From contig CAYPCN010000001.1 in the NCBI GenBank assembly GCA_964409235.1, positions 157,520-221,519 on the forward strand: DNA of 64,000 nt, given 5' to 3'. Below the pieces are notes generated by a model. The model was given only the letters and a program-made list of their open reading frames with translations. It had not been told where the DNA came from and did not search any database. Source of the stretch: an uncultured bacterium (GTDB lineage: Bacteria; Chlamydiota; Chlamydiia; Chlamydiales; FEN-1388). The position numbers and the translations under genes are program-made. This document shows positions 28,832 to 35,524 of the stretch, piece by piece; the first letter of the stretch is position 1, and each line of letters starts with the position of its first letter.

Positions 28832-30943
28832 TTACTTAAACATTGCCGACAGAATTTGCATCATCTGCCGTATGACCTCTTTTATTAAGTTATTTGTTGT
28901 TTCTATTCCCGTAATCGTTGCATTGATGGCTTGCTGTTGTTGATCGGTCAAGTTTGAGAGGACATCTATGCGGGCGCCGATTGCAGACAAGTAGGATTGG
29001 AGTCGTTGGTTGATCTTAGCTCTTTCGGCGGCGTTTAAACTGTAGAGGACATTTCTCTGCTCGTTCTTGGCGGTTTGCGACTCTGGGATATCACTGCCGA
29101 GGATCCCCGGTTTCCAGGCAATCTTCGGATCACGAGCGTTCATACAGTAGGTGTAGTATGCGTCTCGAATCTCTTCGTGGTCATTGCCGAATTCTTTTTC
29201 GTACTCATTCAACGCATTGGAACTCGACAGTTGAATCCGTCCGTGTGCTTTCGCGTCCTGCCAGACGCCGAGAAAGGCGGAGCTGATCGCATCTACTACC
29301 GATGCTTGTTGTTCATTTGCAGCTTTGACCTCTTTGCTCCAGGCGAGCACTTTAGACACATTAAGAGATTTGTCCCAGTCCAACATCTTCTCGTCTGGCC
29401 CGTATACGAAGTTTGATGTGTCACCGGTTTTTTCTGGGACCTTATCTTGATAAAATTCCACCCTCGCTTGTGGTTTGCCATCGGAGGACATTGTCACGTT
29501 GATGACCATGCGATTGCGATACCACGTGTCACCTTCTTTTCCTTTCCAGTCTCCGCTGTACAGAGTGAAGGAGGCTGTTTTGGCTGACGACTTCATATAT
29601 GTGCCGAAGAGCGATTCCGCAATATCTTGGAGAGTAATACCCCCATACCCGAGGATGAACAGGCTGGGGTCGGTGCTGAAGACAATCTGTGTATTGGCAG
29701 AGTCGGCAGAGCTGACGAGGGTTGGGTCTTTTGTCACTTTGACGACAACTGGCTCGTCAGAGAAGGTGAAGGTTCCTATCTCGTCCCAATTCGAAATTTC
29801 CTCGTTAGTTTTGTCCGGCGCCCTTCGTGCGCGATAGGCCGTAAACGTTCCGTCGGCAGTCTTTTTGGCGTAGATCACGAGCTGTTTGTTCCATCCTCCG
29901 CCAGTGTCCGTGCCGTCCCTGTACACTGGAGAATTGTAGTACTGCGGCGAGACTCCAGATTCATTGATTGTATTCGCAAGGCCGAGGAGGACGTCGGAAA
30001 GCCGTGCGGTGAGGTTAGCTCCTGTAACAATCTTCCCGCTATACCAATACCATTCGCATACGTTTAACGTGCTGTTCCAGTGGCCAATGGTTTCACTCGA
30101 AATAGAACTCGTAATGGTGACAACGCCTTCATACCTTTGTTTTGTTAGCTCCTCCGCAAGTTCAAGATCTACCGTACCTGTTCCAACGTACAACGGTACA
30201 TGTGAGAGCATCTTGGTGTATTCTTCTCTCTTTTTTGTCAGGAAGGTCACGACTTCAGTTTCGCGAATCTGCGTCACCGATGTCGTGGTGAGCATTTCTG
30301 CGAGGATCTCGAAAATCGAATACATCAGCTTGCTTTTTGCAATGGCTTCTGGAGAGGCTGTTGTTGCTAATTCTGCCTGATACGCTCTGTTGAGTTTTGA
30401 GGAAAGGAACTTGACATACAGGCGTTGATAGTCTTCTGGCGTTGCTGTGACAGGCAACGCTATGACCTCTGGAGAGCCTAAAAAGTCTAAGAGGAGGCGC
30501 TCGAGTTCTTGGGCTGTGGTCTCTCCATAGAGTTGCAATGTAGCTCTTTGATACCATGGGTCTTGTTCCAAGATCAGCCTGGCAATGAATCGAAGGAAGA
30601 GGCGGCGGTAGTCGGCCTCTGTTGCTGTGGCTGGCAAGGAGAGGACTTCTGGGAGCGTCAAAAAATATCGAATGATCTGCTCAACTTCGGCATCTGTGAG
30701 CGTGTTGCCGTGAGCGGCTTGAGTAATCTGCGCAAACCACGGGTTCGTATCTAAGATGTGGTGGGCAATGAATTGCAGATAGAGGCGTCGGTACTCTTCC
30801 GGCGTGGCATTTGCGGGGAGTGCGCGCACCTCGGAAGATAATAAAAACTCTCTCCACATCTCTTGAAACTGATCTTGGGTAAAGTCTTTGCCATACCACT
30901 CTCTTGTAACGTAGGAGAACCAGGTGTCTGATACGATGCCCAT
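28832..30943 (-). CDS. Uncharacterised large protein, paralogue family member 1 (703 aa): 3 N-terminal repeats, conserved helix, variable core, conserved C-terminal helix
   Basis: An AGGAGG SD is present and there is no signal peptide or TM. Three repeats of about 55 aa contain LP(A/V)(N/T)ATPE(E/D)Y(R/Q)RL(Y/F)(L/V).F(I/L). The C-terminus reads ...NNLIKEVIRQMMQILSAMFK. Confidence 0.8.
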   Translation of the reverse strand: MGIVSDTWFSYVTREWYGKDFTQDQFQEMWREFLLSSEVRALPANATPEEYRRLYLQFIAHHILDTNPWFAQITQAAHGNTLTDAEVEQIIRYFLTLPEVLSLPATATEADYRRLFLRFIARLILEQDPWYQRATLQLYGETTAQELERLLLDFLGSPEVIALPVTATPEDYQRLYVKFLSSKLNRAYQAELATTASPEAIAKSKLMYSIFEILAEMLTTTSVTQIRETEVVTFLTKKREEYTKMLSHVPLYVGTGTVDLELAEELTKQRYEGVVTITSSISSETIGHWNSTLNVCEWYWYSGKIVTGANLTARLSDVLLGLANTINESGVSPQYYNSPVYRDGTDTGGGWNKQLVIYAKKTADGTFTAYRARRAPDKTNEEISNWDEIGTFTFSDEPVVVKVTKDPTLVSSADSANTQIVFSTDPSLFILGYGGITLQDIAESLFGTYMKSSAKTASFTLYSGDWKGKEGDTWYRNRMVINVTMSSDGKPQARVEFYQDKVPEKTGDTSNFVYGPDEKMLDWDKSLNVSKVLAWSKEVKAANEQQASVVDAISSAFLGVWQDAKAHGRIQLSSSNALNEYEKEFGNDHEEIRDAYYTYCMNARDPKIAWKPGILGSDIPESQTAKNEQRNVLYSLNAAERAKINQRLQSYLSAIGARIDVLSNLTDQQQQAINATITGIETTNNLIKEVIRQMMQILSAMFK

Positions 30944-30980
30944 TGCTCATTCCTCCTTTTCACGTGCTGTACCGCATCTA

Positions 30981-33620: not shown

Positions 33621-33631
33621 ATCGGCCCTCC

Positions 33632-35524
33632 TTAGTGTTTATAAATTGAACGAAGAATGGTACTGATTGCTTCCATGATCGATATCCATAGAGATGAGAT
33701 TTGATTGACGGAGTCTCGTCCTTTTTGTAAGACGAGCTGTATCTGCTGCGTGGCATTCTGGACCACCCCTCGTTTTGCTCGCGTGGTGTTGACGTATTGC
33801 TGAATCACAAGGTTCTGCTCCATCCGCTTTTGAAGTTCGGACGTATCGATCATCATCAGTCCCGTCACCTCGTCGGTCCACGTGGCGACGTCATTTAATA
33901 AGTGCCCTTTGACGGCGAGAGGGTAGTACGGAGGAGACCCTGATGGATCGCCTCGCAAGTTGGTGATAACGCTGTAGCTGGCTGATGGGTGGGTAGAAAG
34001 GGCGGAGAACACCTCTTTGACCTTGGTTTCGAGTCGAGCAATATTGTCGTCAAAGGTGTATGGCTGGCCTGTATCTGGATTCGTCAATGGGATGTCTTCA
34101 GCGTCGTATATGGGGAGAGTCGCCGTGCGAGTGACGCGAGTGTAGTACTCTGGGTTCTGGTCTGGCCCATGCTCATCGCGGGGACAGGAGACATCGTTTT
34201 TATAGGGTTCACTTTTGAGGTAGAAGTCAAAGGTAAACTGGATCGACGGCTTCCCTTCGCTGTCGAGCACTCGTGAAAATGAATAGGCACCCATCGGGCT
34301 CTTGGCATCGCCGAAGGTGACAGGAGTTTCTGGATGCTCTTCGAGAGATCCATACCCCCACCGGATGACGTCTTGGAGCGAGATATTGGCATAGCCGAAT
34401 GTGTATAGGGTGAGATCCCAGTCCATAGGATTGGCCTCAGAGGGAATGCGCAACGTCGTATGCTCGCTGATGTCGATCTCGTTCACTGGGACGGCGACGA
34501 GGTTTGGCGCCTGTGTCATCTGCTTTGTGTATTCTTTCTGCCAGTCACTGTAGATCTTGAGCGTGGCCGCACTATTGATAACGACTCTTTCCGAGACAAG
34601 CAGCATCTGATGCAAGCTTGCCATCACGTCTCTGAAGACAGTCCGACGTTGTATCTCTTCGGGCGATAGGGCGGTGGCGGCTTCGAACATTCCTTTCTGG
34701 GTTTGCAGGCTGTTGATGAAGTCGACAAACGACGATTTGAGTGTGGACAGATCGGCCGGGTTGGAAGACAACCCTTTCATCGTCAGAAATTTATTCCATA
34801 GGTCCGTGTGCTCGGCGATCGACAGATGGCCGTAGAAAGCATTGAGGTACTGCAAGAAAAATTCCGATCCCTCCCCGCTTGGGAGCGTATTGGTCGACTG
34901 GAGGGAGGCCAGGTCCATATGCCAGTTCGTGTATTGTTGCACAAAGTCGCGAAATTGCGCTTGTTGCTGCTTTGAGCTACTGTCTCGAGCCGAATACCCA
35001 TAGACTTGCAGAAATCTATTCCACAGCGCGATCTGATAGACCTCTTCGGGAGACGCTTCAGGCTGTTGTTGGCTTGGAGGGAGAGCTCCATAGGCGACCA
35101 CCCTGTCATAGAGTGTTTTGAGGTAGTTGGTGAAGAGCGCGGATACATCCTGTTTTTCTATTTGATAGCTCTCGAGGGAGAATGTGCGTAAAAAGCTGTT
35201 CCAAATATCCTTCATCTCCACTTGTGTGATGCCTGGGAATAGAGTTGCGGCGAGGACATAGCACGATTCATATTGTGATGACGCAGGTTGTAACGCTGTC
35301 GATGTCAAAGCATCGACGCTCAACCCCCACGCTTGGTAGCGTTGAAGTAATTGCTTAAAAGCGGTGCGTTGCTGCTCATTCAACGGCTGCGAGACATCGA
35401 TGTTGTGGATACCGACAAATCTTTGCCATACAAGGGCTTGCAGAGGGACAGTATCCCCCCCGTATTGTGTCAATGTCCTTGCATAGAACGGATCGAGAAA
35501 GATGTCGTTGATTTCGATACTCAT
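33632..35524 (-). CDS. Uncharacterised large protein, paralogue family member 3 (630 aa): 4 diverged N-terminal repeats
   Basis: A GGAGGA SD is present. The repeats are LVWQRFVGIHN.., DIWNSFLRTFS.., ALWNRFLQVYG.. and DLWNKFLTMKG... The central helix is SPEEIQRRTVFRDVMASLHQMLL...YSDWQKEYTKQ. The C-terminus reads ...LWISIMEAISTILRSIYKH. Confidence 0.8.
   Translation of the reverse strand: MSIEINDIFLDPFYARTLTQYGGDTVPLQALVWQRFVGIHNIDVSQPLNEQQRTAFKQLLQRYQAWGLSVDALTSTALQPASSQYESCYVLAATLFPGITQVEMKDIWNSFLRTFSLESYQIEKQDVSALFTNYLKTLYDRVVAYGALPPSQQQPEASPEEVYQIALWNRFLQVYGYSARDSSSKQQQAQFRDFVQQYTNWHMDLASLQSTNTLPSGEGSEFFLQYLNAFYGHLSIAEHTDLWNKFLTMKGLSSNPADLSTLKSSFVDFINSLQTQKGMFEAATALSPEEIQRRTVFRDVMASLHQMLLVSERVVINSAATLKIYSDWQKEYTKQMTQAPNLVAVPVNEIDISEHTTLRIPSEANPMDWDLTLYTFGYANISLQDVIRWGYGSLEEHPETPVTFGDAKSPMGAYSFSRVLDSEGKPSIQFTFDFYLKSEPYKNDVSCPRDEHGPDQNPEYYTRVTRTATLPIYDAEDIPLTNPDTGQPYTFDDNIARLETKVKEVFSALSTHPSASYSVITNLRGDPSGSPPYYPLAVKGHLLNDVATWTDEVTGLMMIDTSELQKRMEQNLVIQQYVNTTRAKRGVVQNATQQIQLVLQKGRDSVNQISSLWISIMEAISTILRSIYKH

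Follow-up and report, generated by a model that had tools for sequence, protein, structure and literature searches.

We found that three consecutive genes of a chlamydial T3SS locus, here called A, B and C, encode a protein family that is chlamydia-specific and previously undescribed. Judged by sequence comparison, A, B and C are true paralogues. They represent three ancient, non-redundant orthologous groups in a fixed order, and their products are T3SS-linked, probably secreted proteins that would contact the host. The genes are located in a window of 64,000 nucleotides from an uncultured member of Chlamydiales.

All three genes have ATG starts and lie on the minus strand. Paralogue A (33632..35524) encodes 630 aa, paralogue B (30981..33620) encodes 879 aa and paralogue C (28832..30943) encodes 703 aa. 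Their SD-like sites are strong (GGAGGA, AAGGAGGG and AAGGAGGA) and the gaps within the trio are 11 nt and 37 nt, so the ORF calls and spacing bore out the three minus-strand genes with strong SD and gaps of 11-37 nt described in the earlier note. The trio as such stood, while the tight string was found to include also gene X (35560..37920, minus strand, 786 aa), which the earlier note left out. X opens the string and lies 35 nt from A. A candidate operon promoter, sigma-70-like (TTGTTA-17-TATAAT, 38072..38100, minus strand), was located in the 300-nt gap between clpX and X; the number of sigma-70-like matches in the region was not above that in shuffled sequences, and the promoter is a candidate only.

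Directly downstream of C, after a gap of 171 nt in which no terminator-like site was found on the minus strand, lies a class II T3SS chaperone gene of the SycD/LcrH family (27989..28660, minus strand). The earlier assignment of this chaperone held, as it matched TIGR02552 (LcrH/SycD; 7.4e-41, 139 bits against a cutoff of 104.8) and also Pfam TPR_3. Further downstream on the minus strand are the candidates for the major translocator (CopB-like, 24696..27932, 1078 aa) and the minor translocator (CopD-like, 23674..24654, 326 aa). The CopB and CopD names used earlier rest on position, size and TM pattern and not on a profile match, and a Pfam scan of both proteins gave no match. In the CopB-like protein several stretches are strongly hydrophobic, aa 561-579 and 592-620 among them, and the CopD-like protein has one hydrophobic segment, at aa 107-131. 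The short gaps indicate co-transcription of A, B and C with X, the class II chaperone gene and both genes for the pore-forming translocators.

Beyond the chaperone and the two TM-bearing translocator-like proteins, the T3SS cluster of the window comprises a CesT-type effector chaperone just downstream of CopD, CdsD/SctD (SctD profile match, 6e-51), DUF5398, the DUF5407 needle protein, a YscO-like protein and SctN. We observed the order X–A–B–C–LcrH/SycD chaperone–CopB-like–CopD-like (–CesT–CdsD) in every related metagenomic locus recovered. Thus the proposed link to the T3SS was supported by a profile-verified cluster and by its recurring order, and the co-occurrence with the translocator operon held in all related loci recovered. 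When the window was compared with the other loci, identity was 25-38% for A, B and C and 20-35% for CopB and CopD, against 60-70% for the chaperone, 55% for CdsD and 73-79% for ClpX. By this measure the divergence of A, B and C is on a par with that of the translocators and far above that of the chaperone and CdsD.

The shared plan of the three proteins reflects real paralogy, and the similarity of their repeats and terminal helices, proposed earlier, was significant in pairwise BLASTP (703 vs 879 aa, 1e-11; 703 vs 630 aa, 4e-7; 879 vs 630 aa, 1e-11), with separate C-terminal HSPs between paralogues (6e-4 and 2e-5). For the N-terminal repeat units we used an HMM whose sole input was the single N-terminal unit taken from 37 distantly related members of the family; it contained no window protein. 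This independent model detected 3, 7 and 4 units in the 703-, 879- and 630-aa proteins, respectively, the same numbers as read before. In most lineages A has two units and B and C one each, compared with 4, 7 and 3 here. Across the family the unit number ranges from 1 to at least 42 and the protein size from 350 to 3906 aa; only the N-terminal array is expandable. Since the units are 20-50% identical and no DNA-level tandem repeat was found in the arrays, we consider them old. Close orthologues keep the same length and unit copy number: B orthologues have 870-898 aa, while more distant B-type proteins have 701-741 aa and fewer units.

An exhaustive profile search returned 426 cluster representatives of the family. 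In a neighbour-joining tree of the cores from 10 loci we obtained three clades that corresponded to gene positions 1, 2 and 3, and this clean split points to an ancient triplication. Lineage-specific expansion of the trio was ruled out by the 426 representatives and the position-matched clades. The earlier picture of an expanded, rapidly diversifying family therefore did not survive, given the ancient fixed trio, the close orthologues of equal length and the old units. Such a trio is better explained by a functional set of fixed composition than by an effector repertoire that varies.

AF2 models gave the order of elements as a helical N-terminus, a helix of about 50 residues, an alpha/beta insert and a C-terminal helix of about 70 residues. 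In A, four N-terminal helical units (aa 1-284, nt 34673-35524) precede the 'SPEE' long helix (aa 285-338, nt 34511-34672), an alpha/beta core with GYANISLQDV (aa 339-561, nt 33842-34510) and the C-terminal helix (aa 562-630, nt 33635-33841). B consists of seven units (aa 1-404, nt 32409-33620), the 'SPHE' helix (aa 405-460, nt 32241-32408), a core with GQEGITIRQV (aa 461-812, nt 31185-32240) and the C-terminal helix (aa 813-879, nt 30984-31184). C has three units (aa 1-192, nt 30368-30943), the 'SPEA' helix (aa 193-247, nt 30203-30367), an enlarged core with GYGGITLQDI (aa 248-626, nt 29066-30202) and the C-terminal helix (aa 627-703, nt 28835-29065). The model of A (pLDDT 89.4, pTM 0.59) contains helices at 288-338 (51 residues) and 562-629 (68 residues), and its N-terminal units are confidently folded three-helix bundles (pLDDT ~90). 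The model of C (pLDDT 70.6) has helices at 198-247 and 627-702. Most of the motifs noted earlier were recovered in all three proteins, namely the 'SP(E/H)E' helix, 'G..I(T/S)(L/I)(Q/R)(D/Q)(I/V)' and the C-terminal ends (ILRSIYKH, ILTSIFH and ILSAMFK). 'Y(S/T).W.KEYT' is exact in the 630- and 879-aa proteins and is replaced by 'FLTKKREEYT' in the 703-aa protein. Across the family, conservation is concentrated in the two long helices and the extreme C-terminus. We found no TM segment and no Sec or Tat signal peptide in A, B or C, as claimed before for Sec and TM; the maximum 19-residue Kyte-Doolittle mean was 1.5 or less, compared with 3.29 in the CopB-like neighbour. Their first 25 residues are Ser/Pro-rich and Lys/Arg-poor.

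The earlier note had placed the proteins outside described chlamydial effector and apparatus families, and Pfam and NCBIfam scans of the three window proteins indeed gave no match; no family member scanned matched Pfam families, chlamydia-derived ones included. It had also suggested that they may be tip/filament (SctA) proteins. This identity was not supported and stays a hypothesis, as no profile or structure match to SctA, EspA, LcrV, IpaD, flagellin or FlgK was obtained. A Pfam scan of A, B, C and 63 further members detected no tip, filament, extension or flagellar axial family (FlgK_D1 was matched by only 2 of the 63, with E 0.015 or worse), and neither profiles run against PDB sequences nor the top Foldseek matches of the models of A and C included a tip, filament or axial protein. 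The model of A had no PDB or viral structural neighbour in Foldseek. The axial-protein-like plan was thus retained only as an order of secondary structure, with no axial family match.

X belongs to a conserved family of its own, for which hhalign found no relation to the A/B/C family. Its middle part varies in length and carries repeated units of ~35 aa ('FTDEQL..Y...L.....G.DP.D..V...YG'), followed by a conserved C-terminal helix ...LLQTIASNINAR. Wherever a locus extends far enough in the upstream direction, an X orthologue (453-1504 aa) stands before the trio. The X C-terminal helix resembles the C-terminus of the needle protein CdsF (SctF; DUF5407; window 20209-20553, 114 aa in the ORF call), with an hhalign score of 27 against 9.8 +/- 2.0 for shuffles (P 1e-4) and an HH probability of 11-56%, and CdsF was its best non-self match among the 213 window ORFs. 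The C-terminal helix of A, B and C also aligns in register with CdsF, to the last residues (hhalign P 0.002-0.005). None of 200 column shuffles, which destroy heptad periodicity, reached this score, and CdsF was the best non-family match among the 213 ORFs; the match is weak, with HH probability 7-15% and the next ORF close behind (15.5 vs 14.3). The likeness may reflect generic Q/N/S-rich amphipathic helices.

We infer secretion, an extracellular location and a tip or extension role, the last of which is plausible. Our leading, tentative proposal places A, B and C among the 'middle-class' substrates of the T3SS, as soluble proteins that would be exported through the needle with the translocators and act at the interface of tip and host membrane. 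Assembly or docking could be the task of the 'SPEE' helix together with the C-terminal helix, which ends in ...SIF(R/K/H); the alpha/beta insert that separates the two could be an exposed, fast-evolving face, and the three-helix units could build an N-terminal arm whose length would be set by their number. The size range of the family is far above that of EspA/SseB or LcrV/IpaD, which counts against a tip role, and three paralogues plus X are, to our knowledge, without precedent among known tips. If Chlamydiaceae lack the family, it is not a universally essential part of the chlamydial injectisome.

Less probable, though still a serious competitor, is a role of A, B and C as effectors translocated early, or as proteins that bind the host and merely ride in the translocator operon, with the unit array as a multivalent module for binding host targets. 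SipA is encoded in this way within sicA-sipBCDA and IpaA within the ipa operon, and EspFu/TccP and Tarp are tuned by the number of their repeats. This explanation accounts equally well for operon position and co-regulation, and it is also in line with the variation in unit number, the fast divergence, the lack of a match to any apparatus family and the adjacent CesT-type chaperone. However, effectors seldom come as an ancient trio whose order never changes among deeply diverged lineages, conservation is strongest in the extreme C-terminus and the two long helices and not in a host-facing module, and the units are predicted to be folded bundles rather than linear motifs.

We regard it as unlikely that the proteins stay inside the cell, in the cytoplasm or in association with the sorting platform, and there control or escort the export of translocators (gatekeeper-like, co-chaperone and secretion-hierarchy regulator roles included). 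Their solubility, largely helical content and tight linkage to the class II chaperone and translocators would suit such factors, but their sequences change as quickly as those of the exposed translocators. Large, variable alpha/beta cores and arrays that expand the proteins up to 3906 aa also set them apart from known regulators, and the Pfam scans detected no SctW/CopN-type or other regulator family. Very improbable, in our opinion, is a function outside the T3SS, e.g. as adhesins exported by another route, the operon linkage being a frozen accident of synteny beside tig-clpP-clpX. These genes frequently adjoin the block, and A, B and C matched no T3SS family. Yet in one locus (L001) the block lacks tig-clpP-clpX within 10 kb upstream and nevertheless remains linked to the chaperone and translocators, the short gaps speak for co-transcription with T3SS genes, and the proteins lack an autotransporter/Pmp domain as well as export signals and TM segments.

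Compared with known systems, A, B and C occupy the same slot as the SctA tips LcrV/PcrV and IpaD/SipD/BipD, before a class II chaperone and two translocators, as in lcrV-lcrH-yopBD. LcrV/IpaD-type tips are likewise soluble and without TM segment, and share the order of N-terminal helical part, long helix, inserted alpha/beta domain and long C-terminal helix. Unlike tips, which are encoded by one gene and have ~300-340 aa, A, B and C are three paralogues accompanied by X, have 350-880 aa (up to 3906) with an expandable N-terminal array, and gave no Pfam, PDB sequence or top Foldseek match to them. EspA/SseB and Bordetella Bsp22, proposed to extend the needle, are also encoded just before the translocators and are most conserved in a C-terminal coiled-coil-type helix; A, B and C greatly exceed these proteins in size and possess N-terminal helical units and a folded alpha/beta core, and no member scanned matched EspA (PF03433).

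Conserved terminal helices around a variable core are shared with flagellin, FlgK, FlgL and FliD, and the trio is reminiscent of the 'junction/cap-like' FlgK/FlgL/FliD set. In contrast to these, the first conserved helix is not N-terminal but follows the unit array, and no Flagellin_N/C, Flg_bbr_C or Foldseek match was observed. One JGI record labels an orthologue 'FliE'. CdsF (~100 aa here by its alignment-trimmed start) shares the in-register C-terminus, more strongly with X than with A, B and C, whereas none of the four matched DUF5407 or T3SS_needle_F in Pfam. A variable number of tandem modules and a T3SS link are common to A, B and C and to Tarp, EspFu/TccP and IpaA. A, B and C differ in that their modules are folded three-helix units at the very N-terminus, their copy number is stable among close orthologues, and they form a fixed trio inside the translocator operon.

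We identified three consecutive ORFs on the minus strand of the window, encoding paralogue A (630 aa, 33632-35524), paralogue B (879 aa, 30981-33620) and paralogue C (703 aa, 28832-30943). The gaps between them were 11 and 37 nt, and strong Shine-Dalgarno-like sites (GGAGGA, AAGGAGGG and AAGGAGGA) preceded the ORFs. Pairwise BLASTP of the three proteins gave E = 1e-11, 4e-7 and 1e-11, with further separate HSPs over the C-terminal 60 residues (6e-4, 2e-5). The description of a tightly spaced minus-strand trio of paralogues with strong ribosome binding sites, given in the earlier note, was therefore borne out. 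The motifs listed there were present in all three proteins, except that C carries 'FLTKKREEYT' where A and B have 'Y(S)xWxKEYT'. We did not observe a hydrophobic segment in A, B or C (maximum 19-residue Kyte-Doolittle mean at most 1.5, compared with 3.29 in the CopB-like neighbour), in agreement with the reported absence of a TM segment and of a Sec signal. There were no matches to Pfam (E ≤ 0.01) or NCBIfam models, and Pfam, NCBIfam and Foldseek searches gave no confident match to a cytosolic enzyme.

Downstream of C, on the same strand, lies a gene for a SycD/LcrH class II chaperone (TIGR02552, 7.4e-41), followed by genes for a CopB-like protein of 1078 aa (24696-27932, minus strand) with strong TM segments and a CopD-like protein of 326 aa with one TM segment. 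Both translocator candidates were named from position, size and TM pattern; no Pfam translocator match was obtained for the CopB-like protein. Additional, moderately hydrophobic stretches of this protein (aa 270-291 and 479-502) precede the region of its main TM hairpin, and the counterparts of the protein in related loci measure 909-1334 aa. The genes after the CopD-like one encode a CesT-family chaperone, CdsD/SctD (6e-51), a DUF5398 protein, the DUF5407 needle protein (CdsF), a TPR protein, SctN and a YscO-like protein. The proposed location of the trio beside a class II chaperone and translocator-like genes is thus supported by TIGR02552, by the TM pattern and by the gene order. A scan with the B-type pattern found a single GTDB species genome with such a gene, 'MAG: Chlamydiia bacterium AlinenSediments_bin-4567'. 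Since several of the neighbouring Pfam families are chlamydia-derived and the B-type gene is present in this Chlamydiia MAG, the chlamydial T3SS setting is confirmed. The 171-nt gap between C and the chaperone gene (28661-28831, minus strand) holds an ORF of about 31 codons behind GGAGAGGAG, and a 76-aa gene is called at this position in the related locus P0009. This ORF could be a gene for a small chaperone or partner, or nothing. At about 52%, the G+C content of the whole window is high for a chlamydia.

Further, we compared the window with related metagenomic loci, namely L001, L004-L016 and two known from gene tables alone; the scan for metagenomic loci was run with a 9-sequence subset of a 63-sequence family alignment. 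Wherever the contig reached far enough, the order was the same: gene X (described below), three family genes, LcrH-type chaperone, CopB-like and CopD-like genes. CesT and CdsD usually came next, and SNF2-tig-clpP-clpX often lay upstream of the block. Core regions from 10 loci, placed in a neighbour-joining tree, formed three clean clades, which corresponded to gene positions 1, 2 and 3. Therefore A, B and C represent three old orthologous groups and not a recent expansion, and the earlier wording of an 'expanded family' is contradicted. Rapid diversification through repeat number, also suggested earlier, did not hold either, as close orthologues keep their length and the repeat units are old (20-50% identity) and show no tandem repeat at the DNA level. 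The three genes form an old set with a constant order.

The block adjoins SNF2 helicase, tig, clpP and clpX in the window (38221-45840) and in L004, L006, L010 and L014. The same housekeeping order is present in C. trachomatis (CT708-CT705), where it is not known to adjoin the T3SS block, which suggests loss or relocation of the block in Chlamydiaceae. In L001 (JGI Ga0498942_001042, 1-22058), the X-A-B-C-chaperone-translocator block is preceded by 10 kb of radical-SAM and other genes. Neither tig-clpP-clpX within this flank nor CdsD within the 4.7 kb downstream of CesT was found there, and an AbiEii-family gene follows CesT. The block in L001 is intact despite its changed surroundings.

Self-BLAST for internal repeats gave nothing useful, and the N-terminal units were analyzed with HMMs. 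The unit HMM drew on 37 distant members that have one N-terminal unit each, with the window and its close relatives excluded. It detected 3 units in C, 7 in B and 4 in A, exactly the numbers given in the earlier note. Identity between units was 30-50% within C and within B and 20-34% within A; no tandem repeats were found at the DNA level, and the units appear to be old duplicates. Across loci the usual numbers are two units in A and one each in B and C, while the clade of the window has 4, 7 and 3, respectively; an intermediate clade carries B proteins of about 700 aa. One lineage expanded its modular N-terminal array in all three paralogues, and close orthologues of A, B and C keep equal length. 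The array can expand enormously, as a genuine member from outside the window (P0064, 3906 aa, on a 19.8-kb Logan contig) has at least 42 N-terminal units followed by a normal core and C-terminal helix. The enlarged core of C (29066-30202) contains about 150 residues that are missing from the distant C-type orthologues P0010 and P0011 (580 aa), so part of this core is a lineage-specific insertion.

Word-seeded searches returned only 11-16 relatives per paralogue (11 with the first alignment, 16 with the 142-sequence alignment), all unnamed or 'hypothetical' apart from one labelled 'FliE'. An exhaustive profile search identified 426 cluster representatives at E ≤ 1e-3, of which 223 remained at E ≤ 1e-10 and 77 at E ≤ 1e-30, so the family is much larger than the word-seeded searches implied. 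Most members are 350-650 aa long (all at least 332 aa) and share a common plan with a single N-terminal unit. The N-terminus (M..P....Y......F.G....LW..FL...GL...P) is followed by a helix (LSPxE...R.I.F..F.....ML..LQ.......L.FY.WQ..YT.M....P.Y), a GY.NI...D motif, a variable core and a C-terminus of the type R.E.N..LQQYI.N.RS.R....Q..LL.SI...L..I...IFR. A, B and C all fit this definition, having the N-terminal unit or units, the 'LSPxE...ML..LQ...FY.WQ..YT' helix, the 'GY.NI...D' motif and the C-terminal 'R.E.N..LQQYI...LL.SI...L..I..SIFR' helix. There was no consistent Pfam family among the 63 short members scanned, and names and accessions of 14 cluster representatives gave 'hypothetical protein' or nothing. 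The JGI name of the C-type orthologue P0004, 'flagellar hook-basal body complex protein FliE', had no profile support. We discarded P0078 (3520 aa), a repetitive protein resembling an adhesin whose match covered a short 'DGSYTF' stretch, as a false positive.

The structure of A, predicted with the 142-sequence alignment, was confident (pLDDT 89.4, pTM 0.59), and that of C with a 22-sequence alignment was mediocre (pLDDT 70.6). In the model of A, four units of three helices each (aa 12-284) precede a helix of 51 residues (288-338); an alpha/beta domain follows, and then a C-terminal helix that spans 68 residues (562-629). Foldseek with the whole multi-domain models gave no match at E ≤ 1e-3 (A against PDB and BFVD, C against PDB), and tip, filament, needle and flagellar proteins were absent from the best 50 PDB matches of either model. 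Matches of the core to hot-dog-fold and levivirus-coat-like structures were faint (TM ≤ 0.37, E ≥ 0.005) and were rejected. PDB sequence profile searches, run for the whole family and for the C-terminal helix, found no match beyond generic coiled coils (E ≥ 0.065 for the helix).

We compared the C-terminal helix of the family with the needle protein by profile-profile alignment (hhalign), using CdsF of the window and two orthologues. The two aligned in register to the last residues (P 0.0018-0.0055), with an HH probability of just 7-15%. None of 200 column-shuffled controls reached the observed score (19.6 vs 10.0 ± 2.1); shuffling breaks heptad periodicity, and therefore part of the likeness may be generic amphipathic-helix similarity. 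When the C-terminal profile was run against all 213 window ORFs that reach 90 aa or more, the best match outside the family was CdsF, although narrowly (15.5 vs 14.3). The link between this helix and the needle is suggestive only.

Gene X (786 aa, 35560-37920, minus strand), which the earlier note had left out, heads the gene string 35 nt upstream of A. Between this gene and clpX-clpP-tig lie 300 nt, which include a sigma-70-like match. The position of X is conserved equally to that of the trio, and an internal repeat of the 'FTDEQLFKYITLLQIQNQGLDPNDILVKAQYG' type makes its length differ among loci, from 453 to 1504 aa. X is not a fourth paralogue, as neither BLASTP nor hhalign related it to A, B or C; a PDB sequence profile search gave nothing or generic coiled coils. 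The likeness to the C-terminus of CdsF is clearer for the C-terminal helix of X (...QLQQVMFVYQQFYQSATSMLNALNQLLQTIASNINAR) than for the helices of A, B and C (score 27.0 vs 9.8 ± 2.0 for shuffled controls, P 1e-4, probability up to 56%). The best window matches of the X C-terminal profile after X itself were CdsF, A/B/C and the CopD-like protein; the C-termini of B and C were aligned, but in A it was an N-terminal stretch. X may be the better candidate for a tip or cap.

Between the window and more distant loci, A, B and C share 25-38% identity and CopB/CopD 20-35%, compared with 60-70% for the chaperone, 55% for CdsD and 73-79% for ClpX. Such divergence is to be expected of T3SS components that are exposed and face the host, be they parts of the apparatus or effectors. 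The N-termini of the trio are Ser/Pro-rich and Lys/Arg-poor. Together with the lack of a Sec signal or TM segment, co-transcription with the translocators and translocator-like divergence, this makes secretion via the T3SS likely. The association of the trio with the T3SS is strongly supported, and a role unrelated to this system seems very improbable; a cytoplasmic regulatory or escort role we regard as improbable.

Two host-facing readings share the evidence of divergence. The trio may be apparatus-like and extracellular, at the needle tip or translocon interface, and it is this reading that we tentatively favour, because the set of three is old and constant in order, because conservation is strongest in the pair of long helices and at the very C-terminus, and because the C-termini weakly resemble that of the needle protein. 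The main alternative is that A, B and C are early effectors or host-binding proteins, conserved and encoded within the translocator operon, whose unit array would serve as a multivalent binding module; we consider this conceivable, if somewhat unlikely. A more specific form of the apparatus-like reading, which we hold to be doubtful, is that X, A, B and C jointly build a heteromeric, chlamydia-specific needle tip or extension. In such a structure, the needle-like helices at the C-termini would attach to the CdsF needle or prolong it. Each of the three paralogues would have a position of its own, and the N-terminal three-helix units would act as arms of tunable length (1 to at least 42 units) reaching the host membrane.

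Among T3SS, the injectisome of chlamydiae is held to have branched early, and CT584 has been proposed as its tip or hydrophilic translocator. Cpn0803 was termed a novel T3S-associated protein in the paper on its structure (PMC3260263). If the joint model were true, the deepest-branching lineage of injectisomes would have a T3SS tip architecture of a new class, and the chlamydial needle a candidate cap. The four-gene module of X and the trio is welded to the chaperone-translocator operon across uncultured chlamydial lineages, and offers concrete candidates for the missing extracellular components, with a confident predicted fold and no Pfam family or solved structural neighbour. Even as effectors, these proteins, at present unannotated, would rank with the best-conserved secreted proteins linked to the T3SS in these chlamydiae.

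In comparison with known systems, the trio did not match the tip, filament or axial families (SctA, EspA, flagellin) proposed for it earlier, by Pfam, PDB profiles or Foldseek. EspA/SseB filament proteins (PF03433) are about 190 aa long with a C-terminal coiled coil, whereas the proteins described here are 630-879 aa (at least 332 aa in the family), and no profile match was found in the trio or the members. Flagellar FlgK_D1 matched two of the 63 members below the gathering threshold (best E 0.015), and Flagellin_N/C and Flg_bbr_C were absent from the Pfam families matched among them. Pmp proteins have repeats or an autotransporter domain and Inc proteins a bilobed hydrophobic domain; the trio had no Pfam match to Pmp, DUF582 or Inc and no hydrophobic segment (maximum KD19 ≤ 1.5). 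LcrV (PF04792) and IpaD-SipD-BipD (PF06511) likewise had no Pfam match in A, B and C (E ≤ 0.01) or in the 63 members (E ≤ 1), nor a structural match to the whole models of A or C (Foldseek, PDB). The trio adjoins a class II chaperone and translocators, as the genes of these tip proteins do. Solved tip proteins consist of a central coiled coil plus a distal alpha/beta domain, and the order of elements in the model of A is the same as in the known architectures of LcrV/IpaD-type tips and flagellar axial proteins, a resemblance confined to the predicted order of secondary-structure elements. As no Pfam or NCBIfam model, informative name, solved structural neighbour or, in literature searches, published description of the family was found, we consider the trio, as seen in metagenomic loci and one MAG, a probably new form of soluble component encoded in a T3SS translocator operon. 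It combines an unusual organisation, three paralogues plus X, with an N-terminal module that can expand.
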